Below, piece after piece: positions 1 through 64,000 of a stretch of 64,000 nucleotides of DNA. The notes under the pieces are model-generated. The model did not search any database. It saw only the letters and a program-made list of their open reading frames with translations, and was not told the origin of the DNA. The translations under genes and the position numbers were made by a program. Location of the stretch: the NCBI GenBank assembly GCA_964409365.1, contig CAYPCX010000002.1:32984-96983 (forward strand). Reading direction: 5' to 3'. This DNA is from an uncultured Planctomycetia bacterium. Lineage in GTDB: Bacteria; Omnitrophota; Gorgyraeia; Tantalellales; Tantalellaceae. Each line of letters begins with the position of its first letter. The stretch's first letter is position 1.

Positions 1-3000
1 CTTACCGCGGGCACCCATACCGTGGAGGTCGCCTGGGATAACAGGCATCTGCTTTCGGCGGACAACGAAATAACACTGGAGGGCCTGTATGTAAGGGACG
101 AAAGGGTGGACACGCTTTGCGATCTCGATTCGGACGGAGCGGTCACCGTTAGTGACCTGGTCCTGATGGACAGGGAAAGCCCCGCGGAGGAAGATTCCTT
201 TGAAATAACAGTAGGGACCGTGAGCACGACCACCTATTACGTGACGCGCCTCGCCGACGGACGGTACACGTTCCTCGACGATGATCCGGTCCCCGAGAAC
301 AAACTCCACTATGTCTCTGATGCGTCCGGCAGGACGGTGGAGCTGCATGACGGCAAATACGTGATCCGCCTGGACAGCTCGACCGGCGAGCTCCTCGTTT
401 CAGAACACGTGGCAGCGGACCTTAACATGGATTCCTTTGTGGATCATGCGGATGTCACGGAACTCGTGGATTCCATGGAACTTTATTCCAGGCTGAAATT
501 CGCTGTCGATTTCTCTGGCGCGGCCAGCGCGTGGGACGTCGGCATGGAAGATGGCTCCGTATCCATCACGAAAGACGATTGCCTGGCAGGGAGCCACAAC
601 GGCCGCCTTGAATATGAGTTCGCGGTGACCGAAGGAGCCGATTATATTCTGGGGATCTCGGCGAGGGATCTTGTCGCCGATAACGATGGATACAGGTTCG
701 ATATAGCGGTAACTGTGGACGGCGAGAAGAAGGGGTACCTGAGGATCGAGCAGGACACGCTCCAGTCACAGACGGACGAGATCCTGCTCACGGAGCTGGA
801 TGCCGGCATGCATACTATCGAGTTGGAGTGGACGAACGCGGCGGAACTGGGCGATACGGAGCTCGCGGAGCTTTCAGTGGAGAACGTGTACCTGCGCGAC
901 AGCAGGGCATCCGTTTCGTGCGACCTGAACGGCGACGGTATAGTGGACGGCGCCGATTCCGAAGCTTGGCAGAAAGCAAGGCCCGCTACCGCGGATACCC
1001 GTAAGGTCGTCATGGAGAAAGCCGACGGCAGTACCGAGACGTATTCGGTATTCCTTAACTTCGACGGCACGTTCAAGGTCATAGACGAATCCGGCATTAT
1101 TTATACTATAGATGAGGCCGTGCCTTATTTTATACCGGGCGAGGCTTTTGCCTATACGCTTGCGGATACGGGTCCTGAAGGCGTGGAGGTAAGGGAATAC
1201 GTTCTTGATCTTGAGGGAACGTGCGAAGTGGCGCTGGATGAGACGACCGGCCAGGTATCGATCCGCGAGCGGACCCGGTCGAACGTGAATAAAGACGGGG
1301 AAGTCGACATTACGGATCTCGGGAAGGTGCTCGAGGAGGCCGGAAAAGCTCAAGTCGTGCGTGAGGCTTCCAGATACGTCGAGCTTGGCAATGATTTTAC
1401 GGCACTTTCCGACGGCCGCATCTATACGACCACTCCCGGTGAAGGTGACGACCTGTCGGTGATCTATGACACGGCGGGACTCGCCGCGGGCACCTATGAA
1501 GTAGAACTCTTCCTGGATCCCATCCTGGACGAAACGAACGGCACGATGATACCGTACGGGTTCACGTATGAGTTCGATGTATATAGCGGCAAAGAACAAA
1601 CACAAGGCGCGTTCCTCGGAACCATAGAAGTATCGCCGTTCACGGTCTATGTCGTTGAGGAAGATGAAAGGTCTTTCCTCTCCGGCAAGCTGACGTGCAG
1701 TGTCGATGAGCCGCTTGAGAATATCACCCTTGTTTGCCGACAGTACGTGAATGATATCACTATAAGCCTGCAGAGTGTAGCGGTAAGACGGGCCGATATA
1801 GACCTTGCCGCCGATCTTACCCTGGACGGGATAGTGGATGAAGAAGACATCTTGAAGTGGCATGACCTGGCGCCGAGCGAGAAGGATATCCGCAGGATAG
1901 CGGCGGGGGCCAAGACGTACGTGGTGATAGATAAAGAGAACACGGGCGAGTATATCTTCATCGATGAGGATACGCTCGAAGACGAGGAACCTGTCACGGT
2001 CCATTCCGGATCCGGCGGTAAGCTCGTGGAGCTTGAAGGGATCGAATATGTAGTAACGGAGAACCTTGGAGGCGAGCTGCTTCTCGTGGAGCGCCGCGTT
2101 TCCGACGTGGACATGGACGGTCTTATCACGCAGTATGATGCGACTTTGATGAGGGTGAACAATTTCACCTTCAGCGAAAGAAGGGCCGGTGATGGGTACT
2201 ACACCACGGAAGGGCTTTCGTGGCAGATCGTGGGAGACGGTACGATCTCCAACGTCAATGACGACGAAAGCGCGACTTATAAGTTCGAGCTTCCATCAAC
2301 CGGCCTTTACGATTTTGAAGCGGGCATCCGGGGAGTGGTTGCCGGCCACAGGTTCCTGGTGAGAGTTTTCGACAACGCGGTCTACCTCGGGGATATGGTC
2401 ATTGACATAGAAAGCACTTCAAGCGGGAATGTCGGCGTGCTGGGCGGCATCCAGCTCGGAGCGGGAATTCACGAAATACGGCTTGTCTGGGGCAACGACG
2501 ATGATTTTGAGGATACCGAGACGATAACGATAGAAGATGTAGTCGTGCGCAATACCCGTGAAGACCTGAGGTGCGATATCAACGACGACCGCGTCGTTGA
2601 CGAGGAAGATGTTATCGCCTGGTACGATTCGGCGCTCAGGGAAGGATATGTGAGGAAGGTCCCGATCGTTATAGGGATCACGCCGCATGACTTCCTCGTA
2701 GCTTACTGCGGCGACGGGATCGTAACGGTATATGAAGTGGGTCACGATCCGGTGGTGAGCCATGAAGGCATAGTCGAGCTGTACGGTGAGGAGTTCATGG
2801 CCCTCCCGGCGGATAACGGTGAAGTGGAACTTGCAAGGCGCGAAGCGACAGATACCAACGCCGACGGGACGGTCGATACTTTTGACCTGGCGGAGATCCT
2901 GGAAAGAACAGGGCTTACTTCGGGAGATGACGATTACAGCGGCCGTTTTGACCTGGACGGGGACCTTGACATAGACAGGGACGATATGATCGCCTGGCAG

Positions 3001-6000
3001 AACCTTACGCCGGACACTGCCGGGACCAGTGAGCTGGAGGTCGAGATAGACGGCACGCCGTATGCCTACGGAGTGGTGGAACACGCGGACGGCAGTTTTA
3101 TATTCTATGATCGCGATACCTGCGCTTTCGTGGCGGAAGCCCTGGAAAAGTCGGTCACTCTTGAAGGCAAGGATTTCATCATTCTTACCAGCATCGCGGG
3201 CGGGTTCTCTATAGTGGAAGCCAAGGCGCAGGATATAAACCTTGACGGGACCGTGGATGGAAGGGACAAGGATATCATCCTTTCCAACCTCGGCCTGGAA
3301 GAGGTCGGCGAGCTTTACCGCGCCGATCTCAATAGCGACAATGTCATAGACAGGGAAGACCTCCTCGTGTTCAACGAGCTGGTCCCGGTAGTCGACCGGA
3401 TGCAGCTTGTGAACATGAACGGCGAGGATTTCTATGCCGAATATAATGAGGACGGTAGATTCACTGTGAAGGAGACGGATCTTTCCGAGACTTATACCAG
3501 TGACGAAGATGGTCTTGTCACGATTGGGACCCGGGAATATTTATTCATGACGGTGAGCGGCAGGATAACGGCCGGCGAGGTCTACAGGTGCGATGCCGAT
3601 GCCAACAATATCCTTAACAGCATGGATACGAATACTGTCACGTACGCTTTGGGGTCAGGTCATATCGAACCGGTGGTCATAGGCGAGTGGACGACAGAAT
3701 TTTCAGGGGAGTTCGCCTTTGATATAGACGCCAGTACCTCGGGTTATTACAACGTGGGGCTTGAAATAGCCGCCATGGAAGTGGAAGAAGGGGAAGAGGC
3801 GGAATTCATACCCATGGCCGTCAAGGCCACCCTGGTGCCTTCCGTCGGCGAGGAAAAACTCCTCGGGTATTTTGACGTTCTCCCGAGAGCGGACGCCTCC
3901 GCGCAGGGCAAACTAAGCATCGCGCAGGGCATGTTCACCACCGGCACACAGACGGTAAGGTTCGAATGGACCAATGCCGCGCATATGGACCCGGTGAAGA
4001 TCGAGAAGGTCTTCGTGGAGGATTCAAGATACGCTATAGGCGCGGATCTCAACCAGGACGGTTTCGTGAACGAGGTAGACCAGAGGATACTCCAGACAGA
4101 GAGAACCGCCTCATCCGGCGGGATAGTGGACCTCTATGATCCGACCGTGTCAGATCCCGGTCCGGACGATAAGAACGAATATACGGTGACGACGGATACG
4201 AGAACAGGATCAAGCGGGGATTATACTACCTATATATTCACTGAAGGCGTCTTTTCGACCGAGTCGGATGAGTACGGCCGGGTAACGCTCGGCGCCGGAA
4301 ATTACGAATTCCTCGTGATCGAAAAAGACGGGGAAGTTATCCTTACAAGGCAAACGAGGGAATTCCTCGCCGAGGAAGACGCGCTTGTCTTTGCCTGCGG
4401 GAAGGCCTATCTCTACGATGACGAGACCGGGGTGTTCACCGATGTCGAGACGCCCGGCGATACAAGAGAGGTCACTGACGGCATCGTCGAGCTGGGAGAC
4501 GCTCATATCAAGTATTACGTTATCGAGGAAGCCGGCCAGGTAGTACTCAAAGAGGTCCAGGATACCGGCGCCGTAACGGCGAATGATATCATCCGCATAG
4601 AGGACAGCACGGATTACTTTGAAGATGCCGGCAGTCTCACGATAGGCGGGACCTACACCACGCCGGGTTCGGTGGTCTATGACGTGAGCGAGACGGCGGA
4701 GGGCCAGATAGTGCTGTCGCTGCACGTCGACCGGCACGGGCCCGAAGAGGACAGGTACCTGTTGGTCGAAGGGGAGATCTATCTTGTAGAAGGGAGTGCC
4801 GGAGCATACACTATTACCGCTATTACAGGGGGCCCGGATCCGGTCGTGGATAATGATGCTTCCAAGGTCGCCATAGGCAGCGAAGAATATGACATAGAAA
4901 AACTGGACGCCCAGCGCATCAAACTGACAAGAAGGGTCGACGCGGCAAGGTCCATAGCAGGGCGCATTATAAAGGTGGGCGAGGCGTTGTACACGATAGC
5001 CGCGACCACCGGCGGGGAACATGACTTCGTGAACTTGATGAACAGCTCCGATTTCACCACGAGCGTCCAGCACGAGGTCATGCTCGGCGGGACGATCTAT
5101 CTCGTGGAAAAGGGCGCGGAAGGCGAGCTGGTACTCCGACGGAAGTTCGATTCCGCGGTCGAGGAGGAAGACGCGCGGCTTGTAAGATTCGAGGATCACA
5201 CCTACGAGATCCAGGGTGTTGAAGGAGATTATACGGCCGTTGCCATCCAGGGAGGCGCTTACACCGTCGAGGTGAACAATATCGACAACACCGTGACCTT
5301 TGAGGACGAGACGGAGACCCTCCATGAATTCAGGATAGTGAAGCTCGAGGGAGAAGAAAAACTGGCCCTGGTCGAGGTATCCGCCGAAGCCGCCTCAGAG
5401 GATGCGCGCCTGGTGGATATAGACGGCGAGTATTACCTCTTGGATGAGACGCTCCCCGGAGAGTACACCATATCGGCATACAGCCACGGGGCGCTTGAAC
5501 CCGCGGAAGAGAACGGCCTCTTCATAATAGGAGAAGGTTCCTATGCGACCAGTGTCGATGAGGGCAAGATCATTTTGATAGAAGTGCCGAATGAGGTGGA
5601 AAAGGATGCTGACGCTTTCGTCGTCATCGAGGGTGGTGTCTATACCACGGAAGTGGACGGAGGCGGGGATTTCTCGCTCACGTTCATCGCGGGCGTCGAT
5701 AAGTCACCTGTTATAGATAACGAATACAGCACGGTAACGATGGATTCCGGCGCCGGGAACGTATACAGGATATGGGAAGATCCGGTGACGCTCGAGATAA
5801 ACCTGGAACCATACGTGACATCGAGCACGCCCGAGGAAGAGGAAATAGTCGCCGCCAGTTACGGCGAAGGATATACCGCGCTTTACAAAGCCGAGTTCTC
5901 GACGAACGGCGACGTCCTGTCGTTCGCTCCGGTAATGACCACGGAGGCCACTACCGTCACGTCCGTGCCGGACCTTTCGGTGGAATTCGAGACCCAGATG

Positions 6001-57000: not shown

Positions 57001-60000
57001 ACGACCATCCTGGGCGGGGTCGGCGTACTTGACTACAATGACACTGTTAGCAAGACCTTCACGGGTATCCCGCAGGGCGAAGTTATCATAAGCTTTGATT
57101 ATTATTTCTTCGAAAGATGGATAAATGACGCGAGCCGGTTCAGCAGCGCGTACCTGAAGGTGGACGGCGAGACGGTATGGGCACAGGAACACGATTATCA
57201 CAGTGATGAAGAAGGGCAGCTGGAAGAACTGTTCGCAAGTCCTTACTATGGTGCCCTCAGCTATAACGACTGGGTAGGGCATTTCGAAGTCGTTTATGAC
57301 AATTCCGCGGGGAGCGACGCGCTTACACTCGAGTTCGGTGTGATACCGTTCATGAACGAGGAGGACTGGGGTATCGATAATGTGTGTATAGAGGCAGTGT
57401 ATTCGACCGGTGACCTGGCCGAACCCCGGGAATATATCCCGGTCATGCTGGACGGCGCGTATACTTCACCGGCCGCTCTTGAAGGGTCGAATTGCGTGCT
57501 TGAAGAGGAAGTGGCGGTCAGCCTGATGCCTGATGCCTGGCAGGTAGAAGATGAGATGATCTCCTTCAATACGCTGCGTGGCGGAGCGATCGATTCCATT
57601 TATACCACCTTGAGCTCTACAAGCGTGGCTTTCGGCGCGGAAGAAATAACTGTTCTTGATCCGCTGGTACCTGGGGGATCCGAGGGATTCCAGGTAAGCG
57701 GCGATGCCGCTTTTCTAATGCAGTCGGACGAGGCCTGCGTGGGGGATCATGCCGCTAAGACGGGAGCTATCTCGCACGGTGAGGCGAGCATACTGGAGAC
57801 AACAGTTAATACGGGCAAATACACCGGCACGGCGGGTTTCTGGTGGAAGGTCTCTTCCGAGGCGAACGACAAGTTCAAGTTCTATATAGACGACGAGTTG
57901 CAGGGCGAGATCTCCGGTGAGATAGACTGGAAATACACGACAGCGACGCTTTCCCCGGGCGAGCATACGCTTAAGTGGGAATATTCAAAGGACGGGAGCA
58001 CCTCCGCCGGCGATGACACGGCCTGGCTGGATGAGGTGACCGTTACTAAGGATATAATAGAGTTCGATGATTTCCAGACCGGCGCCTATACGAATAACTG
58101 GGATATCGGTATCATGTATGGAGGCGTGACCGCGCCATACACAACGGACGTTGTCGGAGAGACCATCCTGGGCGGGTATAACAAGTTTGGAAAGGACGCA
58201 ACCGCCGTCAGGACGATAACGAATGCGCCGAAAGAAGCGATCACCATAAGTTTTGATTATTATTTTATCGATAATTGGTACACCGATGAAGCCATATTGG
58301 AGATAAACGGTGAAGTGGTATGGAGTCTATCGCATACCTATAACAGCAGCGATGGCGGTGACTACGAGGAAGACGGCCTACTTCAGGAGATCGGAGTTAA
58401 TGGTGACTCTGTCGGCTATTCCGGGACCAGTTATAGAGACTGGGTAGGGCATTTTGAGATCGTTTATGACAATACCGGCGGAGCGGATATGTTGGAGCTT
58501 GAATTCCGCTCTACGTTGGATGATAGCGGGATAAACTACAGCGAGTCATGGGGTGTAGACAACGTGCGGATGGAGATATTGGATCATCTCCTGATGCATG
58601 ATGATTTCACGCCGGAAAATCAGGTAACTATCTATTTTGACGATGAAGAAATAACGTATGATGAACTCGCCGGTAAATTGGCGCAGCTCCAGGCCGCGGG
58701 AATGGATTTTGAGGTGCATTCCGGGGACATTGCGGACGATGAACATGAGGATGGCATCATATGGTTCCGGACCGTGGACCCGTCGGTGACGGAAATAGAT
58801 GTTTCGGGCGCGCTCGAGAGCGTCAATTTCGGCGGAGGAGAGCTCGTCATAGGTGTTTACACGGTAACGGCGCCTGCGATCATTCGCCTGGACGGCCAGG
58901 AGGTGACCCTTGTGGCGCTTGAAGACGCATTCCAGCTCGGCGAGGTAACGGGTATATTCGAGATACGGACGCTCGCGACCTGTGGCGGAGAAGAAACAGG
59001 CGGCCAGATCACGTTCGCGGACAATATGGTTGAGCTTTACCGTGTCTATGACAAGGCGCACCGCCAGCTGACAGGCGGCGTGGAGGCCCTTAATGCGGCT
59101 ACAGGCACCATAACTATTGATGGAATGGAAATAGAACTGCCTGAGGTTCTTACCTTTAATGGAAAGACGATGAATGCCGGAGAGTTCATAGCGGCGTGCG
59201 AAGAGGTCCTGACCGGTCTGGCGTTCGAGGCCGTGCAGGCCCGCGGCATAACCGAGGACTTTGAAGACGGAACGCTTGATAGTTGGAGTATACGCGGCAC
59301 GAATTCGGAATGGGAAGTAGCAAACGGTACCCTGGTCCAGACATACCTCACCGATACGAGTGGCCAAGAGGATATCTATGAAAAGAGGGCTATTTTCACG
59401 GACAGTGCCATTCCGGAAAGAGAGGACGCGGTGTCCTCGATAAGCGCGCGAGTCAATCCTTACAGATGGCATGTTTATAACGATGACAACGGCACTGCCC
59501 AGGCGGATATCTACGCTTGCTACCAGGATGAGGATAATTACTACCGGATGAGGTTCGGTGAAGATGATATGGTCTATGTGCAGCAAATGAGCGACGGCGA
59601 ACTCATGACGCTTGCGTCCTGTGATGTAAATGCCGGTTTCGGGATCGATATCCAAAGAGATTCCTGGCGCGAATACTCTTTCAGCGTGTTCGGGGACACG
59701 GTCAAAGCGTATATAGACGGAGAACTGGTGCTTGAATACAGCGGGGCCGAAGTCGACAACACGCCGCATGTACTGGCTGATGCCCTTGTAGGCGTCGGGT
59801 GTCCCGGAAATAACCAGGTCTGGTTCGATGATATCAGTATAAGTGAGACGGTGGGTATGGAGGTAAAGCCGCTCTACGCTTATGACGCGATAAAAACCGC
59901 CGAAGGATGGGAACTGGAGCAGGGTTCGTTCGGGGTGTACACCGTCCTGGAACAGAATTATGTGACGGGTCTGGTCCAGGGTGTTGACGCTTCCGCCCGG

Positions 60001-63000
60001 AAGTTCACGATAGCCGGCGAGACTTGTGAGCTTACGGATATGTCTTTTGCGACGCTCGAACTTTCGGATTATACCACCGGCGGTGACTCGGCGTTCTTTG
60101 TCGACGGAAATCTCTCAGAGGGCTTCAGCCTGCGTTCGGGCGATATTGCCGATGGGGAAAGCTCATTTGTGCAGACGACCGTCACCCTGGACGAGGCGAA
60201 GGAACTCACGTTCGACTGGCTTGTGGATTCCGAGGCGGGGGATCTGATGAATTTCTACCTGGACAATATGGTCACGCCGGCGGCCACGACTTCGGGGCTG
60301 AACTATTACGAGGCCGAAAGCAATTTTGAGGCCGGCGCTGAGGGATGGGATATCACCTTCTCCGGCACCGAACCGGACGATACGTCATTCTGTAACGGGA
60401 CGTATATCCTGGGCGGGGACGAGAACTTCAACTACGGTGAAAAGGCCAGCAAGACGTTTACGGGCCTCCCGCAATCCATGGTCACCATCAGTTTTGATTT
60501 TTATTTCATCGATAACTGGGACGGGGGAACGCCGACAAGTGGCGACACGGCGTACCTGAAGGTAAATGAAGAAGTAGAGTGGTCGCAGCCGCATAAGTAC
60601 GACGCCAGCGCCCCTGGCGAAAGCGACCTGCTGGAAAGCGGTTCACTGCGAGAAATTTCCAATATCTTGACGCTTGGCGCGACTTACAGGGATTGGGTAG
60701 GGCACTTTGAGATCGTCTATGACAATACCGGAGGGTCCGATACGCTGGAGCTTGAGTTCTATACAGGCACGAACCTTAATAGCGAGCGCTGGGGCGTGGA
60801 TAACGTGAGAATAAGTTCCGCCTGGACGACCGAGACTTATCATCTCTCGGCCGGGGAACATACCTTGAGGTGGGAATATACCAAAGACGGGGCCGGTTCC
60901 GACGGCCTGGACGCGGCATGGGTAGATAAAATAGCGGTATCCGACATTCAGGTGGATCTCGACGGGACGAACGATCATGTGGATATCCCGGACCTGGGCC
61001 TTTCGGACGGCTTCACGATCGGTATATCGGCGAAGACGGGCTTTACCGACCCGTCCGCCGGAGACAGAACGATCCTCCATGCCAGCGAGGTTTCAGGCCA
61101 GAATGAAATAACGCTCAAATGGGATGAAAATGAGGAAGGCCTTGTCCTTACCGGCTGGGATTCTTCCGCGAGCGCGAGTTACGATATTACCACGGAGATC
61201 GGCTATGACGTGACCGGATGGAACGATTACGTCATCACCTATGACTGCACAACCGTAAGGATATATTTTAACGGTGATATCGTAGCCTGCGAAGACATCG
61301 GCCTTGATGTCTCGACCGTCGGCAGCTGGCTGGTAGGGAAATACACCACAGACACGGAATACTTTGTGGGCTCAATAGATGAAATGTTCGCTTTTGACCG
61401 CGTATTGACCTCCGGCGAGATAAAGAACCTCCACAACGGCAAGAAACCGTCGGAGATCGAGAATTACGGCACTGACTGCCACGGCTGGTGGGCTTTTGAT
61501 GAAAATACCGGGACCGACCTGGATGACAAGACCTCCGGTGGCAATGATGGCATTATTAATGACGCGACCTGGTCAATGAGCGTTGCAAAGGTCGATGATT
61601 TCACGCCGGCGGACTATATCAGTGTTACCGTTGACGGGTATGAATGCTCGTATCGTGAGTTCGAGGATCTCTTCGGCCAGAGCGCGGACGGCCTGACCGC
61701 GTTATACCTTGAGGAAGTCGAACGGGCCAAGGTCGGCTGGAGCCTTACGGAGAGGGTCGTGGAGTTCGTGACGGCCGGTCCGGAAGACCTCATATCCGGA
61801 GCCCTGGAAGAGATAGATACGGATGACGGGAAGATAACCATCGGCGGCATAGAATTCATCGCGCCCAGCGAGGTGTATGTGGATTACCAGCTGATGAGCC
61901 TTGAGGACCTGGAGGATAAGCTCGGCCAGGCGCAGTATTCACTCTTCACCATAAGCACGCTGGCAAGCTGCGAATATACGACGGTCTCCCAGGGAGTATA
62001 CGAGTTCACGGATGACAGGATAGACCTTTATACGGTCGCGCCGTTCGGTCCGTCCGGGCTTGTCGAAGACCCGAGCGCGTTCACGGAAGTGACCATCAAG
62101 TGCGACGAGGTCATAAGCGTTACCGGTATCTATTCCGACCAGGCGACCTATACGGTGGAGGTCAATGATACGACGGGTATGGTCGAAATAAAAGAGGACG
62201 GCGACCTCATCGTTTCCGGCGACATACCCGAGCAGGACTTCCTGCTCCTGGATGACAAAGGTCGGGAGATGATGACCGTGACGATCGACTACAAGGACAT
62301 AGTCGATGCCGTCCATACGGTGTACCTGCCGGCAGGCGGCTTTACCACGGAAGTCGCGATAAAAGAAGGCCAGATCCTCTCCGCGACCAACCTGCCCGCG
62401 GGTTACAATGTGGAATTCAACGATATATCCGGATTCTTACAGCTCCTGTACGGGGACGCGGTCATAGTTGAAAGCAAGGTGCCCACGCTGCTTCCGTATG
62501 TAAGCGAAGAAGACATGGTGGTCCTGGAGACCTCCATACTCGAGGAAGCCGCCTTTGACGTTACCCCGGACGATGACCGCGATTCGGTATACACGATCAA
62601 TAATACCTTCTCCGACGGTGTGCTTGACCGCACTTACGCGCCTTATTTCGACGGGGAATATACGATAGACGTAGCCGACCTTACGGGTGACGAAAGGTGC
62701 GACCAGCAGGACGTGGACTACCTGGAGATGCTGGCGGACGCCTGTTTGCGCATGAGAGCGGACCTTACCGGGGACAGCAGGGTGGACCAGGCGGATGTCG
62801 ACTGCTGGGACGTCAGCCCGTTCAACTGGAAAGATATAGACGGCGACGGCGAGATCAACAGCGAAGACTATACAGAACTTGTCAGGCTCGTCGCGGAGAG
62901 CGCGGCGATCTACTTCCAGGCGGACGTGAACAGGGACGGCGTAATAGACGCTGAGGATGAAGCAGATTTTCTCACTTACATCGCTGATAAGGAAAAACTC

Positions 63001-64000
63001 GCCGAGGTCGAGGCCGGCGACATGATGATCTATTACGAGACGTCCGGCGGTTTCAGGACCGAGACGCACGCGGCGGACTTGGCAGGGCTTTACACTACCG
63101 CGGGCTGGAAGTTCGAAGATGACAGCCTCTTGCTGGATAAGACACCCGAAGAGGACATCACCGGTCAGGCCTTCAGTTTCGAGATAGACGCCGATACGGA
63201 AGGCCTGTATGAATTGGCCGTATCCGTGCGCAATCCTTATCCGTTCGTTGAAAGCGGCAACGTGATCGAGCTCAACGTATACGTGAACGGCGAATACAAC
63301 GCTTACGGGAACCTTGATGTGGATAACTTTGCGGAAAACTTCCAGAAAATAATCACTGATATATACCTTAACGAGGGAACGAATACGGTCACCATCATGG
63401 TCTGGGATCTGAACGGCGACGGCGACCGTATGGTAGAGGGTGAGCTGCCGGCGGTTATGCCGTCCGGGTACGGCGTGGGCCTGGAGATAGAGAAGATCTA
63501 TCTTGAAAAAGGATACAACCCGGCGCTCGACTTCAACGCGGATAACGTGATAACGGCCGACGAGATGCAGAAGTTCTTTGACGAAGAATACGTGGAAAGG
63601 CCCGCGACGGCGATACAGAGCACGCCCAGCAGCGAAAAGTGGGTGATCGTGGGCGGTGTCGCTTACGCCGTGGGAGAATATACCGATCATATAGAGTTCA
63701 TTTACGGCGCTGCTTCTTACACCACCGACAATACCGGCGGGATCGTTACCCTCGAAGACGGTATCCAGTACGAGGTAACGACCGAGAACGGCGAGGTTAT
63801 CGTCACTGAAGTGCAGGAGCTCATAACCGTGGCGGAAGACACGAGATACCTGACGATAGACGGCACCCGGTATATCGCGGAAGAGACGGAAGCAGAAGGC
63901 GTGATAAAACTGACGGGCGGCGGCGATGTCATAACGAGCGAAGAAGCCTACAAGATAACCGTTGAAGGGACCCGTTACGATATCGTGTTCGCCGGGGAAT
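1..64000 (+). CDS. Single ultra-giant ORF, partial at both ends, encoding at least 21,333 aa of a modular acidic Ca2+-binding carbohydrate-binding/adhesin-like mega-protein
   Basis: Frame 1 translated by hand across the window with 0 stop codons. Every 60-nt line begins a codon. The ORF track has no frame-1 entries, consistent with a frame open to both edges. Codon usage is coding-like (GC-rich 3rd positions) and recognisable protein domain motifs occur throughout. Confidence 0.96.
607..978 (+). other. CBM6/CBM35-like β-sandwich module ('LEYEFAV..GADYILGISARD...LDAGMHTIELEWTNA...VENVYLRD') plus dockerin-type Ca loop (DLNGDGIVDGADSEAW)
   Basis: Motif layout Y-x-F-x-(V/L)...G-x-Y-x-L-x-I-x-A-R ... 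(V)DG ... L-x-A-G-x-H-T-(I/L)-x-(L/F)-x-W-x-N matches the CBM6/35 topology. The loop follows the DxNxDGxxDxxD dockerin/EF-hand pattern. Confidence 0.4.
2272..2637 (+). other. CBM6/35-like module ('ATYKFELPSTGLYDFEAGIRG...GAGIHEIRLVWGND') plus dockerin-type loop (DINDDRVVDEEDVIAW)
   Basis: Same motif skeleton as the module at 607-900, with a Ca-loop immediately downstream. Confidence 0.4.
2851..3009 (+). other. Canonical two-segment dockerin-like domain (DTNADGTVDTFDLAEIL ... DLDGDLDIDRDDMIAWQNL)
   Basis: Two DxNxDGxxDxxD loops, each followed by an amphipathic helix and spaced about 30 aa apart, as in type-I dockerins. Confidence 0.55.
3229..3384 (+). other. Canonical two-segment dockerin-like domain (DINLDGTVDGRDKDIILSNLG ... 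DLNSDNVIDREDLLVFNEL)
   Basis: Duplicated 22-residue Ca-loop plus helix segment, the classic dockerin architecture. Confidence 0.55.
3709..4101 (+). other. CBM6/35-like module ('FAFDIDASTSGYYNVGLEIAA...TGTQTVRFEWTNAAH...KVFVED') plus dockerin-type loop (DLNQDGFVNEVD)
   Basis: Motif skeleton as above. Confidence 0.4.
4201..6480 (+). repeat. Tract of degenerate β-hairpin repeats of roughly 24 aa (consensus about Φ-x-Φ-x-G-x-x-Y-x-Φ-x-x-D-x-x-T/E-G-x-Φ-x-L)
   Basis: Examples: VTLGAGNYEFLVIEKDGEVILTR, VMLGGTIYLVEKGAEGELVLRR, VDIDGEYYLLDETLPGEYTISAY, VVIEGGVYTTEVDGGGDFSLTF. Confidence 0.5.
6481..8680 (+). repeat. YD/Rhs-like tandem repeat block: about 4 diverged units of 170-210 aa
   Basis: Recurring 'FEYLDEDHD..G.GR...Y...TDTY..Y.W....V.V.VY.GEYT' and 'LD...NGW.....Y....YDAEGRL' motifs. 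Units begin near nt 6520, 7140, 7660 and 8245. The YD dipeptide hairpins are typical of RHS_repeat. Confidence 0.5.
10153..10518 (+). other. CBM6/35-like module ('LTYTFELEDTDDYFVGLSARN...TKGTHEVKFVFKNTSG...DIYVNR') plus dockerin-type loop (DTDRDGEITEHDAETLEALI)
   Basis: Motif skeleton as above. Confidence 0.4.
10981..14340 (+). repeat. Second long tract of the β-hairpin repeat of roughly 24 aa
   Basis: For example VSLNGEIYLIMEDEQTGLFTVTDG, VRLNGLLYSITEDEENDTITLAR, VEIDGIEYELVEGAEGELALVSV, VDIDGRTYEVTVTTDETEGETVRL, IRLSGTLYNVTYDYLTGRYVFDNG. Confidence 0.5.
16249..16620 (+). other. CBM6/35-like module ('FSYNIVPQVSGVYHLAIKASSSALTV...DATEHEVMFMMSNP') plus Ca loop (DINGDYRYTTEDGQVIQRMI), embedded in the dockerin array
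   Basis: Motif skeleton as above. Confidence 0.35.
17281..17781 (+). other. DUF1080-like (3-keto-disaccharide hydrolase family, LamG-like jelly-roll) domain #1, inserted in the dockerin array
   Basis: 'WTAGSGDWSITD...EAEDFILETQVRL...GGAGIMFHFQDEDNYYECVL...WYDLKVEANGREYTFYLNGEEMF...TGGKAGLVC...ADFDDFVLG' follows the DUF1080 motif order. Confidence 0.5.
20880..21180 (+). other. Predicted α-helical/coiled segment within the Ca-loop array
   Basis: 'QREKILEAKDVKAKIETLDEMLASGSYTTPEAKAQLEEIIDYLGLQTMEGNVASSFDAKLELLTKVLKEEIF...RQELLEEMVEKLG' is heptad-like, E/K/L-rich and lacks loops. Confidence 0.3.
21268..21381 (+). other. Canonical EF-hand pair (DKNSDGKITQAE ... DADGDGVTTQSE)
   Basis: 12-residue loops with D1, N/D3, D5, G6, hydrophobic 8 and E12, which is the textbook EF-hand consensus. 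This differs from the dockerin-type loops elsewhere, which carry D at position 12. Confidence 0.55.
22681..26040 (+). repeat. Third long tract of the β-hairpin repeat
   Basis: For example VVIEGTLYDVDYDAATGEVTLTEV (23290s), VEIGGILYDIDEIGEEIRLTAR (24210s), VRGVLYDISFDAESNIVLTKH (24700s), VEIGGVEYVLEYEVKQEW (25780s). Confidence 0.45.
28381..31110 (+). repeat. Fourth tract of β-hairpin repeats with interspersed unclassified segments
   Basis: For example LDGETFKIGQDRYRVFANS, VILGDVFYIIEGPDGNGHYTVREA, VVEADGTINLSGRTTEASGAYIIEVNGAQYVVSEA, LADDVLYRVTRDPETEEVILSDA. Confidence 0.4.
31219..31623 (+). other. CBM6/35-like module ('EINYRIDIPSAGVYDIGLFARTYNS...GEGEHDLNMVWNIPEW') plus dockerin-type loop (DLDGDLDVDDDDLAILVTNIG)
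   Basis: Motif skeleton as above. Confidence 0.4.
32929..33078 (+). other. CBM5/12-like (chitin-binding-type) small domain
   Basis: 'EWSMEEKYYVDDIVSKDGVDYICTSTHTYHPDYVPGTGSNWISRWSVF' matches the CBM5/12 pattern W...Y..GD.V...G..Y.C...H.....W.P......W. Confidence 0.4.
33085..33615 (+). other. DUF1080-like jelly-roll domain #2
   Basis: '...DIYAGYVNDSDDVNDYGSAFYQMRVGKDDILTIYRK...GFGIDIEPDEWHEYTFGAW...IKAFIDGEKIIEL...GGKAGVGCPAGGSVRFDEVRVN' is homologous to the motif order at 17281-17781. Confidence 0.45.
34819..35421 (+). other. LamG_3-type (Concanavalin A-like lectin/glucanase) domain #1
   Basis: Ends in the signature 'FAFFDRALSETEIQALV...EGIVAYYSFDAGDAKDDSGNGNDGSM'. Confidence 0.5.
35821..36435 (+). 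other. DUF1080-like jelly-roll domain #3
   Basis: 'DLYVRYQDADNFYRMRLGDQDTLEIGKSTGGEYTTLAIVNVNTGFGINIVRDNWYRFAFVCDGDTGELAAYIDGVEVLSF...GAAGVGCAENVRAYFDDVTFG'. Confidence 0.45.
36931..37500 (+). other. DUF1080-like jelly-roll domain #4
   Basis: 'DLYLRYRDDDNFYRLTLNEETDIVKIERASSGVYSTLAEVNVNTEFSLDLLEDQWYEISFVAWGNRLTGYIDSMEVISV...GYAGVGGRSNTELYFDDLEV' is a paralogue of domain #3. Confidence 0.45.
38341..38784 (+). other. 'TILGGY/FDYYFID' β-sandwich module, copy 1 (unclassified family)
   Basis: 'TVILGGYEKFNYDDTVTKTFTGDLLQDAVTITFDYYFIDSWSDYDAYLEINGERVWEQSHDHD...YDDYVGHFEVVYDNTGGPDTLALTFG...YWGIDNVKV'. Six paralogous copies occur in the window. Confidence 0.35.
39589..40011 (+). other. CBM6/35-like module ('WLEYEFDILHEGAFDIRIQVKNGS...LAEGTHTLRFVWANSGS') plus dockerin-type loop (DLNDDGVVDAEDLDIFMSSYG)
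   Basis: Motif skeleton as above. Confidence 0.4.
40327..40980 (+). other. LamG_3-type domain #2
   Basis: 'MSFDGVDDHITAPV...ITLAAWANI...VDDVSLWDEALTGGEIREVMSSG...EGLVAYYSFNDGTAVNNTGDY'. Confidence 0.5.
41065..41436 (+). other. CBM6/35-like module ('YRLTYEFDDVYGRGNYNIGLDVRTHA...LEDGDHTVTFTWLNPEEG') plus dockerin-type loop (DINFDGAVNSEDIRLFGS)
   Basis: Motif skeleton as above. Confidence 0.4.
41584..42243 (+). other. LamG_3-type domain #3
   Basis: 'LSFDGFEDHLEAS...HAIAVTREYSTLTLYIDGEL...MDDISVWGRALTQAEVRELY...CRAWWELDEGMGAEFMDSTANDRDGTVSGAAW'. Confidence 0.45.
43276..43575 (+). other. CBM6/35-like module ('LKLRVFVDGEGYDDFYCGNISVPW...LTQGVYTVRFQWANDYGEE') plus Ca loop (DFNGDYVADDEDHDQM)
   Basis: Motif skeleton as above. 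Confidence 0.35.
44116..44439 (+). other. GG-type lectin / ILEI (FAM3)-like domain #1
   Basis: 'GINIVTVDKDTGEREFTSWETDLEANVQAMTVYLRNHAQGTIVIASKGGSKVGALNEDAFLALESAGSAHIRDVVSGSTWSMVGYIGAS' parallels the FAM3/ILEI core (G-L-N-I-A-L-V-N...TG...FDM.....FL...P.GALVLVAS.DD......A...LGS...R.SW.FIGAK). Confidence 0.5.
44995..45609 (+). other. LamG_3-type domain #4
   Basis: 'VDFDGTNDYIDCDNIMNGFTDFSISLWLKT...WHHVAVVRSGSTITFYVD...IDEVAIFDTALAEEDVEALLS...LTAYYSFDDHTAEDSSVNGNDGTILG'. Confidence 0.5.
45640..46290 (+). other. LamG_3-type domain #5
   Basis: '...HISVPYQAVEGLSDFTYSIRVKAG...WHMVTVTREYSTLALYVDGAE...FRDISVWERALDGAEVSALY...CRAWWAVDEGTGAQVLDATDNSYDGAFELGAWA'. Confidence 0.45.
46321..46656 (+). other. 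GG-type lectin / ILEI (FAM3)-like domain #2
   Basis: 'EDGVNMAYIPPAGDIEFSTWDTSYTTNAGAMADYLEGIYSTGMREGAVLLVSIQGTTAATGLTEDALAALEAFGSLEIRKVSASDRWSMAVLVEEV' has the same core as domain #1. Confidence 0.45.
47248..47544 (+). other. CBM6/35-like module ('YKFDVDIKGPDDSVHRNVGQITVFAG...MPIGEYYVRFTWVDQEEG') plus dockerin-type loop (DLNSDGKIDVEDKMIMHESAG)
   Basis: Motif skeleton as above. Confidence 0.4.
48091..48420 (+). repeat. Short YD-repeat cluster
   Basis: 'DGEVKIYDAADDKLWKKFLPDGRVFRYDKDGHLDEMTDRTGNLIYCHHDEEDQTTVTVDITNDITKSYDQQGRLVEVISEEGELTYDYT' carries YD/GRL hairpins typical of RHS_repeat. Confidence 0.45.
48427..49032 (+). other. LamG_3-type domain #6
   Basis: 'MSFDEDVEQVLIEGDSSLNASEAFTVSAWFNW...WYHVTVVKESDDNVHVYLYD...IDEVAFFDRALDATEAQELKG...GLVACYSFDDGTAKDITGNGRDGFAT'. 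Confidence 0.5.
49336..49902 (+). other. LamG_3-type domain #7
   Basis: 'YLTFDGTDDYIDCGDIADFHDIEYGTVETWIKG...WYHVAVVWSSTGMELYIDGLL...IDEVAVYDHALTGDEIRQHYSDG...GLVAFYAFQDGEVTDGSGNGKDGVKYG'. Confidence 0.5.
50272..50976 (+). other. LamG_3-type domain #8
   Basis: 'LGLKFDGADDYIGLSS...LSTWAFIDP...WAHYAVTWKNLGEDAETGDYFVEVKLYVNGEAVA...MRDASVWSSALSEEDMADIYSG...CEGWWRLEEASGTVAEDQTLNDRDGTINGGAWG'. Confidence 0.45.
51016..51555 (+). other. Discoidin / F5/8 type C (CBM32/NPCBM-like) domain
   Basis: 'ISSATATYNQTGYDISETLDGIKDSADNGWAVDG.CGQSAMFTFDGLPAVDTVVLTQ...DLKDFELYYTVDEDPSLTDSIWVSV...ALKIQVNDTMDADHNFVLSEVEVFGS' follows the F5_F8_type_C motif order (ASS...DG...T.W...Q...VDL..V..V.L.Q...F.I.YS.DG..W...........RYVRL......E.EV.G). 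Confidence 0.5.
52114..53070 (+). repeat. 'WEY-KD' jelly-roll module W0, preceded by three tandem ~96-aa (~288-nt) copies of its N-terminal half
   Basis: The half-units begin at 52114, 52399 and 52687, each '(A/T)D(F/Y)STGG(D/N)A(P/A)F(Y/F)(V/I)Q...(F/L)(Y/F)AL(Q/K)(S/A)G(D/P)I(S/T)(D/H)(G/D)E...E(R/K)V(V/I/F)T(F/L)(D/E)...(V/I)SF(Y/D)WK(V/A)S(S/T)E'. They are followed at 52875-53070 by the C-half '...LTAGTYTVRWEYTKDADDTGATYKDTAWLDNVVIRA'. The H2/H3 nt identity is about 90% over the first ~45 nt. Confidence 0.5.
53101..53586 (+). other. 'TILGGY/FDYYFID' module, copy 2
   Basis: 'TTILGGYYKFGQGACAVKEFTGVPQGEVTISFDYYFIDNWSSDDGILYVNGEEVWRLTHTYDSD...YRDWVGNFEIVYNNTSGSDTLKLAFTS...SFGMDNVKIE'. Confidence 0.35.
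53839..54237 (+). other. 'LTIGxYTVYAP ... WEY-KD' module W1
   Basis: 'LTIGAYTVYAPEAVLLDGETVTLADLDNMLQDPDHAVKFDIRTLATVEGEYTDTGILF...FSFYVGDTLVDEIYGETDWTEATHALTAGTYTLRWEYAKDDLWSRGDDTVWMDDLRVD'. About 80% nt identity to 56506-56901. Confidence 0.4.
54250..54765 (+). other. 'TILGGY/FDYYFID' module, copy 3
   Basis: 'TTILGGYNKFGQGATASTVLTDVPQGEITITFDYYFIDRWDGADDEGFLKINGQEVWSLAHKYDN...YRDWVGSFEVVYDNTGGPDTLVLTFGS...SWGIDKVKVE'. Confidence 0.35.
55081..55662 (+). other. LamG_3-type domain #9
   Basis: 'CLDFNGASEYVSTPV...TFEAWVYPKS...WQHIAAVFDPVGGKVHFYKNG...IAEAAIFDRPLTEEEIQARLDANS...GLLAYYSFDDGTALDSSGSGNDGTIKG'. Confidence 0.5.
55708..56271 (+). other. LamG_3-type domain #10 (paralogue of #5)
   Basis: 'REYVAVPYGTIDGLSDFALNFRVKAEE...WHMVTVTRSGDELSVYIDG...LRDISVWERALTEVEVGAMY...CRAWWGIDEGTGTAVLDKTTNANDGAIHGAGW'. 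Confidence 0.45.
56506..56901 (+). other. 'LTIGxYTVYAP ... WEY-KD' module W2
   Basis: 'LTIGSYTVYAPGEIRLDGQEISLADLENVLQDPDHASKFDIRTLATLEGEYTDTGILF...FAFYVDDALIDEIYGEVDWTDVTHALPAGTYTLRWEYSKDVLWSEGDDAAWIDGLDF'. Confidence 0.4.
56917..57393 (+). other. 'TILGGY/FDYYFID' module, copy 4
   Basis: 'TTILGGVGVLDYNDTVSKTFTGIPQGEVIISFDYYFFERWINDASRFSSAYLKVDGETVWAQEHDYHSD...YNDWVGHFEVVYDNSAGSDALTLEFG...DWGIDNVCIE'. Confidence 0.35.
57685..58050 (+). other. 'WEY-KD' module W3 (complete, contiguous)
   Basis: 'GFQVSGDAAFLMQSDEACVGDHAAKTGAISHGEASILETTV...GFWWKVSSEANDKFKFYIDDELQGEISGEIDWKYTTATLSPGEHTLKWEYSKDGSTSAGDDTAWLDEVTV'. Confidence 0.4.
58054..58581 (+). other. 'TILGGY/FDYYFID' module, copy 5
   Basis: 'ETILGGYNKFGKDATAVRTITNAPKEAITISFDYYFIDNWYTDEAILEINGEVVWSLSHTYNSSDGGDYEEDGLLQEI...YRDWVGHFEIVYDNTGGADMLELEFRS...SWGVDNVRMEI'. 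Confidence 0.35.
59254..59847 (+). other. DUF1080-like jelly-roll domain #5
   Basis: 'EDFEDGTLDSWSIRGTNSEWEVANGTLVQ...DIYACYQDEDNYYRMRFGEDDMVYVQQMSDGELMTLASCDVNAGFGIDIQRDSWREYSFSVFGDTVKAYIDGELVLEY...VGVGCPGNNQVWFDDISIS'. Confidence 0.45.
60061..60945 (+). other. 'WEY-KD' module W4, split by a nested insertion of 'TILGGY/FDYYFID' copy 6 (60322-60819)
   Basis: N-half 60061-60300: 'LSDYTTGGDSAFFVDGNLSEGFSLRSGDIADGESSFVQTTVTLDEAKELTFDWLVDSEAGDLMNFYLDNMV'. Then the full T-module: 'TYILGGDENFNYGEKASKTFTGLPQSMVTISFDFYFIDNWDGG...YRDWVGHFEIVYDNTGGSDTLELEFYTG...RWGVDNVRISS'. Then the C-half 60820-60945: 'AWTTETYHLSAGEHTLRWEYTKDGAGSDGLDAAWVDKIAV'. Confidence 0.4.
60946..61572 (+). other. LamG_3-type domain #11
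   Basis: 'IQVDLDGTNDHVDIPDLGLSDGFTIGISAKTG...WNDYVITYDCTTVRIYFNGDIV...IDEMFAFDRVLTSGEIKNLHNG...CHGWWAFDENTGTDLDDKTSGGNDGIINDATW'. Confidence 0.5.
63172..63591 (+). other. CBM6/35-like module ('FSFEIDADTEGLYELAVSVRNPYPF...LNEGTNTVTIMVWDLNGDGD...IYLEK') plus Ca loop (DFNADNVITADEMQKFFDEEY)
   Basis: Motif skeleton as above. Confidence 0.4.

Follow-up and report, generated by a model that had tools for sequence, protein, structure and literature searches.

Recurrent CBM6/CBM35-like β-sandwich modules fused to dockerin-type calcium loops in a giant acidic protein of probable Omnitrophota origin

We find that the stretch of DNA analyzed here (64,000 nt, the window) repeats a module of ~140 aa in 13 copies, 12 of them complete and the remaining one truncated where the window begins, and that in every copy the module runs almost directly into a 12-residue calcium loop of the dockerin/EF-hand type. 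The reading we consider probable, if far from certain, is that the window is an internal stretch of a giant, extremely acidic, calcium-binding, extracellular Dockerin-type protein of Omnitrophota, in which a jelly-roll of the CBM6/CBM35/CBM36 class recurs together with a Ca2+ loop-helix; from these parts we infer a fibre-like, glycan-binding mode of action.

Frame +1 contains 0 stops over the 64,000 nt (the other five frames contain 119-1134), and the window is a single open frame of 21,333 aa. All of the start points that a first-pass annotation of this DNA had listed for the repeat fall in this frame, without a stop. Long open reading frames on the minus strand were dismissed as by-products of the codon composition of a single-frame acidic gene. 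The encoded protein consists of D 10.8% and E 9.5% (Asp+Glu 20%), K 2.8% and R 3.5%, and Pfam identifies in it Dockerin_1, EF-hand (EF-hand_7), Laminin_G_3, 3keto-disac_hyd (DUF1080), ILEI and a GH59 C-terminal lectin domain. The protein contains 84 loop-like calcium motifs, whereas its shuffles give 7.0 (maximum 12). The copies of the module were located with a module-only profile, with the calcium loop left out. Features are listed below by nucleotide position and strand, with the profile positions of the module in amino acids, its E-value in the leave-one-out search (LOO) and its identity to named orthologs.

1-64000, +: uninterrupted open reading frame (stop count), internal fragment of a giant acidic protein running off both window ends
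1-192, +: copy 0, C-terminal part of the module nt 1-117 (aa 1-39, cut), calcium loop and helix nt 121-192 DLDSDGAVTVSD; module-loop gap 1 aa; E 6.3e-4 with the module-only HMM, 8.8e-12 with the loop-including HMM
418-993, +: copy 1, upstream calcium loop-helix nt 418-489, β-sandwich module nt 496-921 (aa 166-307), downstream calcium loop-helix nt 922-993
1282-1884, +: copy 2, the most diverged, upstream loop nt 1282-1353, module nt 1336-1812 (aa 446-604), downstream loop nt 1813-1884; LOO E 6e-07; P0007 670-781, 37%
2104-2646, +: copy 3, upstream loop nt 2104-2175, module nt 2173-2574 (aa 725-858), downstream loop nt 2575-2646; LOO E 4.9e-13; P0007 1059-1178, 48%
3583-4116, +: copy 4, degenerate upstream loop nt 3592-3663, module nt 3583-4041 (aa 1195-1347), downstream loop nt 4045-4116; LOO E 3.3e-17; P0007 1640-1821, 33%
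9916-10530, +: copy 5, upstream loop nt 9916-9987 (the later loop of the adjoining pair aa 3280/3306), module nt 10039-10452 (aa 3347-3484), downstream loop nt 10459-10530 (first of the pair aa 3487/3510); LOO E 4.3e-17; P0056 59%, P0054 52%
16084-16611, +: copy 6, upstream loop nt 16084-16155, module nt 16156-16536 (aa 5386-5512), downstream loop nt 16540-16611 (first of the contiguous pair aa 5514/5543); LOO E 1.3e-10; P0031 37%
31102-31629, +: copy 7, no upstream loop, module nt 31102-31557 (aa 10368-10519), downstream loop nt 31558-31629; LOO E 4.4e-20; P0065 56%, P0067 53%, loop kept in both
39409-40008, +: copy 8, upstream loop nt 39409-39480, module nt 39475-39936 (aa 13159-13312), downstream loop nt 39937-40008; LOO E 1.4e-20; P0002 2634-2786, 62%
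40948-41454, +: copy 9, no upstream loop, module nt 40948-41379 (aa 13650-13793), downstream loop nt 41383-41454; LOO E 6.1e-19; P0002 3138-3242, 61%
43075-43584, +: copy 10, no upstream loop, module nt 43075-43512 (aa 14359-14504), its N-terminus carrying a long elaboration, downstream loop nt 43513-43584; LOO E 7.5e-12; P0014 55%, P0002 56%
46975-47547, +: copy 11, upstream loop nt 46975-47046, module nt 47035-47475 (aa 15679-15825), downstream loop nt 47476-47547; LOO E 1.3e-08; P0002 5087-5230, 55%
62923-63600, +: copy 12, upstream loop nt 62923-62994 (third loop in the run aa 20921/20945/20975, with Pfam Dockerin_1 at aa 20945-20986), module nt 63058-63522 (aa 21020-21174), downstream loop nt 63529-63600; LOO E 2.4e-13; P0108 57%
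184-408, +: ~65-aa β-rich spacer between calcium loops, copy a
994-1272, 1885-2094, 2647-2841, 3022-3222, 3397-3582, 39178-39399 and 40009-40188, +: further spacer copies

The first-pass annotation had named 12 of these 13 copies, missing copy 2, and two of its starts (nt 43276 and 47248) lie mid-module. Absent from its description is the ~65-aa β element that separates successive units in the N-terminal array. A loop-spacer-loop HMM recovers seven of the eight spacers at E 1e-35 to 1e-43 and the eighth (nt 39178-39399, within the match aa 13035-13159) at E 1.9e-12, and it finds weaker copies elsewhere in the protein; searches of Pfam and of PDB sequences give nothing significant for the spacer, the top match being bulb-type lectin 1bwu at E 0.05.

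The fold of the module was predicted from alignments made up of window sequences. The AF2 model of the unit (pLDDT 77.5, pTM 0.73) consists of a helix (13-24), eight strands and a second helix (181-190), each helix beginning near loop position 10 as in F-hand/dockerin segments. Its sandwich is the β-jelly-roll (galactose-binding-domain-like fold) of CBM6 and CBM35, and the structural matches of this helix-sandwich-helix model are of CBM35 class. In a larger model covering aa 600-978 (loop, spacer, loop, module, loop, spacer, loop; pLDDT 66.7, pTM 0.39), the sandwich strands of copy 3 are recovered and the spacer is predicted to be all-β. At the level of sequence the relation is more distant. 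Searched with the Pfam models, the modules give CBM_6 (PF03422) at E 0.1 and CBM_35 (PF16990) at E 0.13, one member each and both sub-threshold, and no match to CBM_4_9; whole-protein Pfam scans place neither CBM_6 nor CBM_35 on the modules, none of which reaches a Pfam gathering score for CBM6 or CBM35 directly, and neither Pfam nor CAZy has an entry for the family. A profile of the window modules only matches P0006, P0019, P0020 and P0016 at E 1e-53 to 1e-32, and the matched residues in these proteins score 36-64 bits on CBM_6, above its cut-off of 28.9, so that the CBM_6 link of the window modules is transitive only. Compared with PDB sequences, the module profile finds Chi-CBM35 2vzp as its best match (E 0.005), followed by the CBM6 2cdo (0.009) and CBM6E 8j3x (0.024). 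Taken together, the predicted jelly-roll, the match to 2vzp and the transitive link support the CBM6/CBM35-like β-sandwich that had been proposed from the sequence, and the hmmscan comparison proposed with it gives a divided answer, negative for the modules themselves and positive for their relatives.

Do these sandwiches carry a binding site? The signatures of CBM6/35 sites are an aromatic (Trp) in region A and an invariant Asn in region C (PMC9843283). In the marginal HMM alignment to 2vzp, the Asn of the W-x-N motif falls <=2 residues from the CBM35 Asn, and a loop Tyr of the family adjoins the Trp-rich loop. This Asn is present in eight of the 12 complete copies, with two more ambiguous, and the candidate loop aromatic in seven (5 Tyr, 2 Phe). 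The first-pass annotation had wished to see the ligand-site aromatics inspected; as placed by that marginal alignment, a candidate aromatic is lacking in 5/12 copies. In several copies both candidate residues are kept across orthologs of different genomes, for example in the groups of aa 13159, 13650 and 3347, and some copies may retain residues corresponding to the binding-site Asn and aromatic of CBM6/35; copies without them probably serve only as spacers.

The last point can be extended to all copies: the β-sandwiches could be structural spacers like Ig/BIg repeats that bind no sugar, with the calcium loops serving only to drive folding after export and to stiffen a long stalk, and ligands taken up at the LamG, DUF1080 and lectin-like domains. 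We judge this rather unlikely, while giving it real weight. The tentative site residues are indeed missing from several copies (the aromatic in 5/12 copies, the Asn in 2-4/12), the most conserved positions of the module lie in the β-strands, i.e. its core, the extreme acidity of the protein and its 84 calcium-loop motifs fit a calcium-rigidified fibre, and BT0996-C shows that a module of CBM6/35 fold may do without the canonical signatures. Against a purely structural role stand the several copies that hold on to both candidate residues from ortholog to ortholog, and the surroundings of the wider module family, which adjoins the glycan-active domains CHB_HEX_C_1, GDSL esterase and CE2_N and scores as CBM_6 or CBM60.

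We turn now to the calcium loops. In 13/13 copies the module is followed, after a gap of 0-2 residues, by a loop D-x-[DNT]-x-D...[DE]; the first-pass annotation had claimed a loop within about 15 residues of each copy, and the loop is there every time with a tighter spacing. Asp1 and Asp5 are kept in 13/13 of these loops, Asp/Asn at position 3 in 12/13 and Asp/Glu at position 12 in 13/13 (Asp in 11 of 12 aligned copies, Glu in the remaining one), in line with the dockerin loop, whose ligands stand at positions 1, 3, 5, 9 and 12 ahead of an F-hand helix. An upstream calcium loop-helix, a feature overlooked by the first-pass annotation, is present in 9/12 complete modules. Because the downstream loop is an orphan in three copies, and because two further copies have a complete dockerin pair on either side, the picture of a sandwich nested in a dockerin is not uniform.

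Elsewhere in the protein the dockerin character is clear. In module-free regions the paired loops lie 31-33 aa apart, as is canonical for dockerins, and contiguous pairs at 23-40 aa reach the Pfam Dockerin_1 cut-off, with 114.9 bits over seven stretches in aa 5157-7370 and 35.7 bits at aa 3087-3133. A short run of D loops at aa 5543-5605 is spaced at 15-16 aa. Each module of the N-terminal array has one segment behind it, the next one being 87-120 aa away or across a module, and the module-attached loops do not form a tandem two-segment dockerin domain at the Pfam cut-off of 22.9 bits. Splices that join the flanking loops by removing the module cover positions 2-49..56 of the Dockerin_1 model (57 positions) and score 14.8-23.8 bits, one splice of five (copy 8, 23.8 bits) reaching the cut-off. 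This excision is not discriminating, since spacer-excised splices and natural contiguous pairs likewise give 15-24 bits. A position-specific scoring matrix for first versus second dockerin halves was correct for 12/22 and 15/22 in leave-one-out, near chance, and could not assign the module-flanking loops. The matches elsewhere in the protein and the nearly full-model alignment of the excised loops bear out that these are calcium loops of dockerin/EF-hand type.

Genuine Dockerin_1 matches (those at aa 5157-7370 and aa 3087, and another at aa 20945) raise the question of a cellulosome-like assembly, in which the dockerin-type segments bind cohesins on other proteins, the giant protein thereby recruiting or joining a multi-enzyme complex, and the CBM-like modules target polysaccharide, as in clostridial CBM6/35-dockerin enzymes. 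The CBM35 2wz8 does stem from a dockerin-bearing cellulosomal protein, and the distant relative P0016 has a weak cohesin match (20.6 bits, cut-off 24.1). We nevertheless hold such an assembly to be improbable. No cohesin domain (PF00963) is found in the 21,333 aa at E <= 0.01. Type I dockerins require the two-segment form for cohesin binding, and the loops attached to modules are mostly single half-sites; dozens of dockerin-like sites interleaved with β domains in one polypeptide look architectural. The published models, too, put the helices beside the barrel in one chain (West-Roberts et al., 2023).

For the loops a different use is conceivable, though less likely than not: module and calcium loop(s) would make up one composite domain in which the dockerin is repurposed, its half-sites clasping a nested CBM-like sandwich instead of a cohesin in trans, and in three copies a single half-site would dock on the sandwich. 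Such a unit would be a Ca2+-switchable rigid rung of a micrometre-scale, lectin-studded fibre with which ultra-small Omnitrophota grip prey or host. This proposal extends an AF2-based suggestion of West-Roberts et al. (2023).

The recurrence of the module is statistically secure. Every held-out module is recovered by the profile of the other eleven at 15.8-63.1 bits (E 1.7e-21 to 6e-07), compared with <=10.2 bits for the best of 500 composition-preserving shuffles per module. The claim of at least 13 copies of module plus loop is thereby confirmed, and the profile scores, on whose significance that claim had been allowed to stand or fall, exceed those of the shuffles. Pairwise identity in the alignment is 14-26% and the best BLAST matches between paralogs reach 25-33%, against an identity of about 20-30% as first estimated. 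Identities this low in a compositionally extreme protein might suggest that the recurrence is a by-product of a biased Asp/Glu/Gly/Thr/Val-rich composition and not homology, which the shuffle control, the hundreds of external homologs and the consistent predicted fold refute to the point where we give it practically no credence. At the DNA level, blastn finds nothing between modules beyond patches of 25-27 nt, and a recent duplication of DNA is rejected. Because collinear orthologs in Omnitrophota giant-protein fragments share 33-62% identity, compared with 25-33% between paralogs, and because the copies have no DNA similarity, the duplications are old, and the earlier description of them as ancient and maintained stands.

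Where else does the unit occur? An exhaustive search of representative proteins with the window-only profile returns 752 at E <= 1e-3. The top matches are partial giant proteins of Candidatus Omnitrophota that carry the module+loop unit (P0001, in 8/8 copies, P0002-4, P0007 and others), and all named close homologs, the collinear ones at 33-62% identity, are proteins of Candidatus Omnitrophota MAGs. No related loci were found in the genome or metagenome contig collections.

Drawing on these features, we return to the reading of the window as part of a calcium-binding extracellular protein and outline how it might work. The last strand of each ~140-residue jelly-roll leads, over 0-2 residues, into the dockerin/EF-hand-type 12-residue Ca2+ loop and its helix, and in 9/12 complete copies the sandwich sits between two dockerin half-sites. 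After export, Ca2+ would fill the loops and stiffen the junctions, and the stiffened junctions would yield a long fibre with rung-like structure. Multivalent glycan-binding sites would be presented by the sandwiches and by the LamG, DUF1080, ILEI and lectin-like domains, and these sites could attach the cell to the envelope of prey or host. The function that this outline suggests, judged from sequence, is that of a calcium-stiffened, glycan-binding adhesin. Few known proteins are as long as the giant proteins of Omnitrophota, and the unannotated unit that recurs most in them is here defined at the sequence level: a profile of the module, its invariant junction of 0-2 residues to the calcium loop, and an upstream loop that is optional make such regions annotatable. 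Small expressible constructs such as aa 137-332 suit tests of calcium dependence and glycan specificity, and if the modules bind cell-wall glycans of prey, they are a pointer to the attachment target of Omnitrophota.

Among known systems, the RTX adhesins (MpIBP, LapA/LapF) are calcium-rigidified giant repeat adhesins of Gram-negative bacteria and share with this protein great length, acidity and β-sandwich repeats, as well as features predicted for it: secretion, Ca2+ at the junctions and ligand-binding domains for attachment. They differ in the fold of the repeat, which is BIg there and a CBM-like jelly-roll here, and in the calcium sites, which are inter-domain acidic clusters or RTX nonapeptides there and EF-hand/dockerin loops here; the window shows no sign of RTX or T1SS. 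With type I dockerins (PF00404) the protein shares the D-x-[DN]-x-D...D/E loop of 12 residues with a helix behind it, and contiguous pairs that score as dockerins. A canonical dockerin, however, is one contiguous C-terminal domain of ~60-70 aa that occurs once per enzyme and binds cohesin, whereas the half-sites here are single or split by a 140-aa sandwich and number dozens per chain, in a window without a detected cohesin. Compared with CBM35, CBM6 and CBM36 (2w46, 2vzp, 4qb1, 2wz8; 8j3x, 2cdo, 1uxz; 1ux7, 7ay3), the modules have the strand-level motifs aG.Y.l....N, V.G and L.aG.h.i.f in common, but they lie below every Pfam CBM cut-off, share 8-22% identity with solved CBMs, have by marginal alignment Tyr/Phe (7/12 copies) in place of the signature region-A Trp, and are fused without a linker to a calcium loop-helix that canonical CBMs lack.

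The closest likeness is to the 'Dockerin-type giant proteins' of Omnitrophota, described as repeating CBM35-like/dockerin-like subunits in which dockerin-like helices lie on either side of the barrel in a single chain (West-Roberts et al., 2023, bioRxiv 10.1101/2023.11.21.568195, Fig. 6, CAILPI010000004_73). Just as in those proteins, the window is part of a giant open reading frame rich in dockerin/EF-hand calcium sites, with DUF1080, ILEI and LamG; its unannotated repeating β modules find their best structural match in CBM35 and are joined by dockerin-like helices, with loops on both sides in 9/12 modules; and its nearest homologs are Omnitrophota MAG proteins. The best external identities of the window modules are 33-62%, and CAILPI010000004_73 may be the same protein or a relative. 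The published type also has bacterial thrombospondin type 3 (TSP3) repeats and a C-terminal membrane anchor with SecA-like and C39 domains (West-Roberts et al., 2023); Pfam detects neither TSP3 nor SecA and C39 domains in the window, which is an internal fragment of a gene whose remainder may still carry them. The published repeats are barrels of ~200 aa given without a sequence profile (West-Roberts et al., 2023, bioRxiv 10.1101/2023.11.21.568195), whereas the module here is ~140 aa, with an invariant downstream loop (13/13, gap 0-2 aa), an optional upstream loop (9/12) and three copies with a single orphan loop. The repeating CBM35-like/dockerin architecture is already described in the 2023 preprint, and the present result, which is no new kind of system, confirms and refines it.

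Frame +1 is open throughout, with no stop codon over 64,000 nt (the other five frames carry 119-1134 each). What the window encodes is accordingly an interior piece, 21,333 aa long, of a single giant protein that exceeds both window ends. Its composition is extremely acidic, with D 10.8%, E 9.5%, K 2.8% and R 3.5%. Every 4-kb bin has a positive GC skew (+0.08 to +0.15) and a positive AT skew (+0.05 to +0.21): purines predominate along the whole coding strand, in keeping with a single long gene in which Asp, Glu and Gly codons abound. The minus strand carries 36 ORFs of 150-841 aa (for example nt 13345-15870, 18526-20457 and 21223-23043), and minus frame 2 has just 119 stops in 21,333 codons; we do not count these ORFs as evidence of genes, the simplest account being a by-product of GAN/GNN-rich codon usage in the acidic plus-strand gene. 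A Pfam scan of the giant protein, run on five overlapping pieces, matched EF-hand models and the domains listed here, and returned no CBM_6, CBM_35 or CBM_4_9 at E <= 0.01.

Pfam domains of the giant protein
aa 3087-3133, +, Dockerin_1
aa 5157-7370 (nt 15469-22110), +, Dockerin_1, 114.9 bits, 7 stretches
aa 20945-20986, +, Dockerin_1
aa ~11,600-19,000, +, many Laminin_G_3 domains
nt 17257-17709, +, 3keto-disac_hyd (DUF1080)
nt 35821-36387, +, 3keto-disac_hyd (DUF1080)
nt 59251-59841, +, 3keto-disac_hyd (DUF1080)
nt 37267-37503, +, GH59 C-terminal lectin domain
nt 44167-44430, +, ILEI

The ILEI, GH59 C-terminal lectin and DUF1080 domains are glycan-related and lie scattered among CBM-like modules. 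The dockerin array at nt 15469-22110 consists of densely packed canonical two-segment dockerins (~30 loop motifs) and is much more orderly than the loops attached to modules.

The first-pass annotation had proposed that one module skeleton recurs in at least 13 copies, and this observation is confirmed: its start points all fall in frame +1 with the skeleton present, and a module-only profile, with the Ca loop left out, recovers 12 complete copies and the C-terminal end of a thirteenth, including one (aa 446-604, nt 1336-1812) absent from the earlier list.

Module copies (module-only profile) and collinear orthologs in the homologous proteins P0007 and P0002
aa 1-39, +, C-terminal end only
aa 166-307, +, complete; P0007 400-530
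aa 446-604, +, complete; P0007 670-781
aa 725-858, +, complete; P0007 1059-1178
aa 1195-1347, +, complete; P0007 1640-1821
aa 3347-3484, +, complete
aa 5386-5512, +, complete
aa 10368-10519, +, complete
aa 13159-13312, +, complete; P0002 2634
aa 13650-13793, +, complete; P0002 3138
aa 14359-14504, +, complete; P0002 3802
aa 15679-15825, +, complete; P0002 5087
aa 21020-21174, +, complete

Scored against a profile of the other eleven, each complete module reaches E 1.7e-21 to 6e-07 (15.8-63.1 bits), against at most 10.2 bits for the best of 500 shuffles per module; the repeat is statistically significant. A six-tyrosine run (KGKYYYYYYSAPGDEY) lies at nt 31678-31695 (aa 10560-10565), ~40 residues downstream of the module at aa 10368-10519.

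Coupling to calcium loops proves tighter than the "within about 15 residues" originally estimated: in 13/13 copies a 12-residue loop begins 0-2 residues past the module end, with Asp at positions 1 and 5 and Asp/Glu at 12 in every copy; position 3 is Asp/Asn in 12/13. The giant protein contains 84 matches to a loose loop motif, where shuffles contain 7.0 (maximum 12). In nine of 12 complete modules a second loop-helix lies just upstream (aa 140, 428, 702, 1198, 3306, 5362, 13137, 15659 and 20975), and the N-terminal 1,400 aa read L-M-L-s-L-M-L-s-L-M-L-s-LL-s-LL-s-L-M-L (L, loop-helix; M, module; s, spacer). Canonical dockerin loops are spaced 31-33 aa apart. Loop pairs with no intervening module have this same spacing, which favours the reading of a module inserted between two dockerin halves; splicing and PSSM tests gave no discrimination on loop pairing, and a larger model, of aa 600-978, reached pTM 0.39. 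Flanking loops are not uniform: after modules aa 3347 and 5386 come complete contiguous loop pairs (3487/3510; 5514/5543), and modules aa 10368, 13650 and 14359 carry one downstream loop each, unpaired in either direction, and this loop is conserved in their orthologs. The invariant core is thus the two-part unit of module and downstream loop; an upstream half-site often accompanies it. At nt 16627-16815 (aa 5543-5605) four D-x-D-x-D-G loops lie 15-16 residues apart (DINSDGEVDVDD..DPNGDGYITGSEADFDADGNGSV..DADRDGDIDDED), a thrombospondin-type-3-like spacing unlike that of dockerins, with no Pfam match to TSP3.

The spacer is an all-β element of ~65 aa with the consensus I..YYV....DG.Y.F.D.D...G..VEL.G.E...L....G.....E, and weaker copies are spread over the whole giant protein. 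Against Pfam and PDB sequences it gave nothing significant (best, bulb-type lectin 1bwu, E 0.05); it may be related to the β-hairpin-based structures reported for Omnitrophota giant proteins.

Spacer copies (~65 aa, all-β)
nt 184-408, +, between Ca loops
nt 994-1272, +, between Ca loops
nt 1885-2094, +, between Ca loops
nt 2647-2841, +, between Ca loops
nt 3022-3222, +, between Ca loops
nt 3397-3582, +, between Ca loops
nt 39178-39399, +, between Ca loops
nt 40009-40188, +, between Ca loops

For aa 137-332, AlphaFold2 with an alignment of the 12 paralogs only gives a model (mean pLDDT 77.5, pTM 0.73) that contains a helix (13-24), a poorly defined linker (28-48), eight β-strands and a second helix (181-190), both helices beginning near loop position 10 as in EF-hand/dockerin (F-hand) segments. 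Its fold matches are CBM35 4qb1, 2vzp and 2wz8, CBM36 1ux7, and CBM6 2cdo and 1uxz, and Foldseek returns CBM35-, CBM36-, CBM6-, CBM4- and CBM16-containing chains at E about 1e-5, so that prediction and structure search agree on the CBM-like β-sandwich suggested in the first-pass annotation. Pfam on isolated modules was not significant (CBM_6 E 0.1, CBM_35 E 0.13, one member each), and CBM35 2wz8 ranks first among PDB sequences for the window-only profile (only E 0.1). An exhaustive search of 1.84 billion protein representatives with that profile matched 752 proteins at E <= 1e-3, of which 174 reach E <= 1e-10, whereas a word-indexed search found none of the family, a null that does not mean absence of relatives. 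In a subgroup without the Ca loop (P0005, P0006, P0016, P0019, P0020 and others, E 1e-56 to 1e-32) the same residues match Pfam CBM_6 at 36-64 bits (cut-off 28.9), and also CBM60, which connects the modules to the CBM6 clan transitively and at significant scores. With a profile of 47 family sequences, the top PDB sequences are Chi-CBM35 2vzp (E 0.005), CBM6 2cdo (0.009) and CBM6E 8j3x (0.024). Together, the model matches, transitive link and profile matches support a CBM6/CBM35-class fold and superfamily, with no specific CAZy family assigned.

CBM6/35 sites are conserved above all in a Trp of region A and an Asn of region C, the latter invariant (PMC9843283). In a marginal alignment to 2vzp, the family's conserved W-x-N Asn just past the penultimate strand falls <=2 residues from the CBM35 Asn and the family's loop Tyr (Y-x-x-G) adjoins the Trp-rich loop, a correspondence we infer from alignment, not superposition. 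The Asn is present in 8/12 complete copies (2 more ambiguous); an aromatic residue occurs in 7/12 (5 Tyr, 2 Phe) and is missing in the rest. Both residues are kept in orthologs of modules aa 13159, 13650 and 3347; the Asn has been lost from the aa 10368 ortholog group, and the aromatic is absent from the aa 166 group. By this pattern, sugar binding would be possible in some copies and improbable in others.

The duplication had been read as ancient and maintained, and judged by divergence it is: window paralogs share 25-33% identity at best and no DNA similarity, and every module pairs with an ortholog of its own (33-62% identity), in collinear order, so the duplications predate the divergence of these lineages. 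The sole clear DNA-level internal repeat in the window (nt 52096-58489; 65-74% identity over 330-490 nt) lies inside the Laminin_G_3 array and reflects duplications much younger than those of the CBM-like modules. The named close relatives (among them MGB2630434, MFC1643850, MDD5421826, MBF0216762 and MFA6609733) are all partial, often contig-filling giant proteins of Candidatus Omnitrophota MAGs. The top 150 matches contain 251 modules with enough flanking sequence on either side, and 69 of these carry the downstream loop; in the homolog P0001 it is found in 8/8 modules.

With these refinements the earlier interpretation is supported. Most likely, the giant protein would be exported, Ca2+ would then fill many loops and stiffen the junctions between β domains to give an extended fibre, and the CBM-like sandwiches, with the LamG, DUF1080, ILEI and lectin-like domains, would make multivalent, low-affinity glycan contacts serving adhesion to another cell's envelope. 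That the modules are purely structural spacers we consider unlikely; a cellulosome-type cohesin-dockerin assembly is less probable still, no cohesin being found in the window by Pfam at E <= 0.01. A compositional artefact is refuted by the leave-one-out scores against shuffles.

This kind of protein is already described, at structure-prediction level. In Omnitrophota, 'Dockerin-type giant proteins' have been defined that combine EF-hand/dockerin repeats with DUF1080 and ILEI, and their AlphaFold models show unannotated repeating β barrels, closest to CBM35 and flanked by dockerin-like helices (West-Roberts et al. 2023, bioRxiv 10.1101/2023.11.21.568195); a dockerin-bearing class is also listed among Omnitrophota long proteins in a 2026 preprint. 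The window is alike in domain content, unit architecture and relatives, and its ILEI/GH59 lectin/DUF1080 set is the same as that of the 2023 preprint. To these descriptions we add a definition of the unit at the level of sequence, with what is invariant in it, how its copies vary and how old it is in evolutionary terms.
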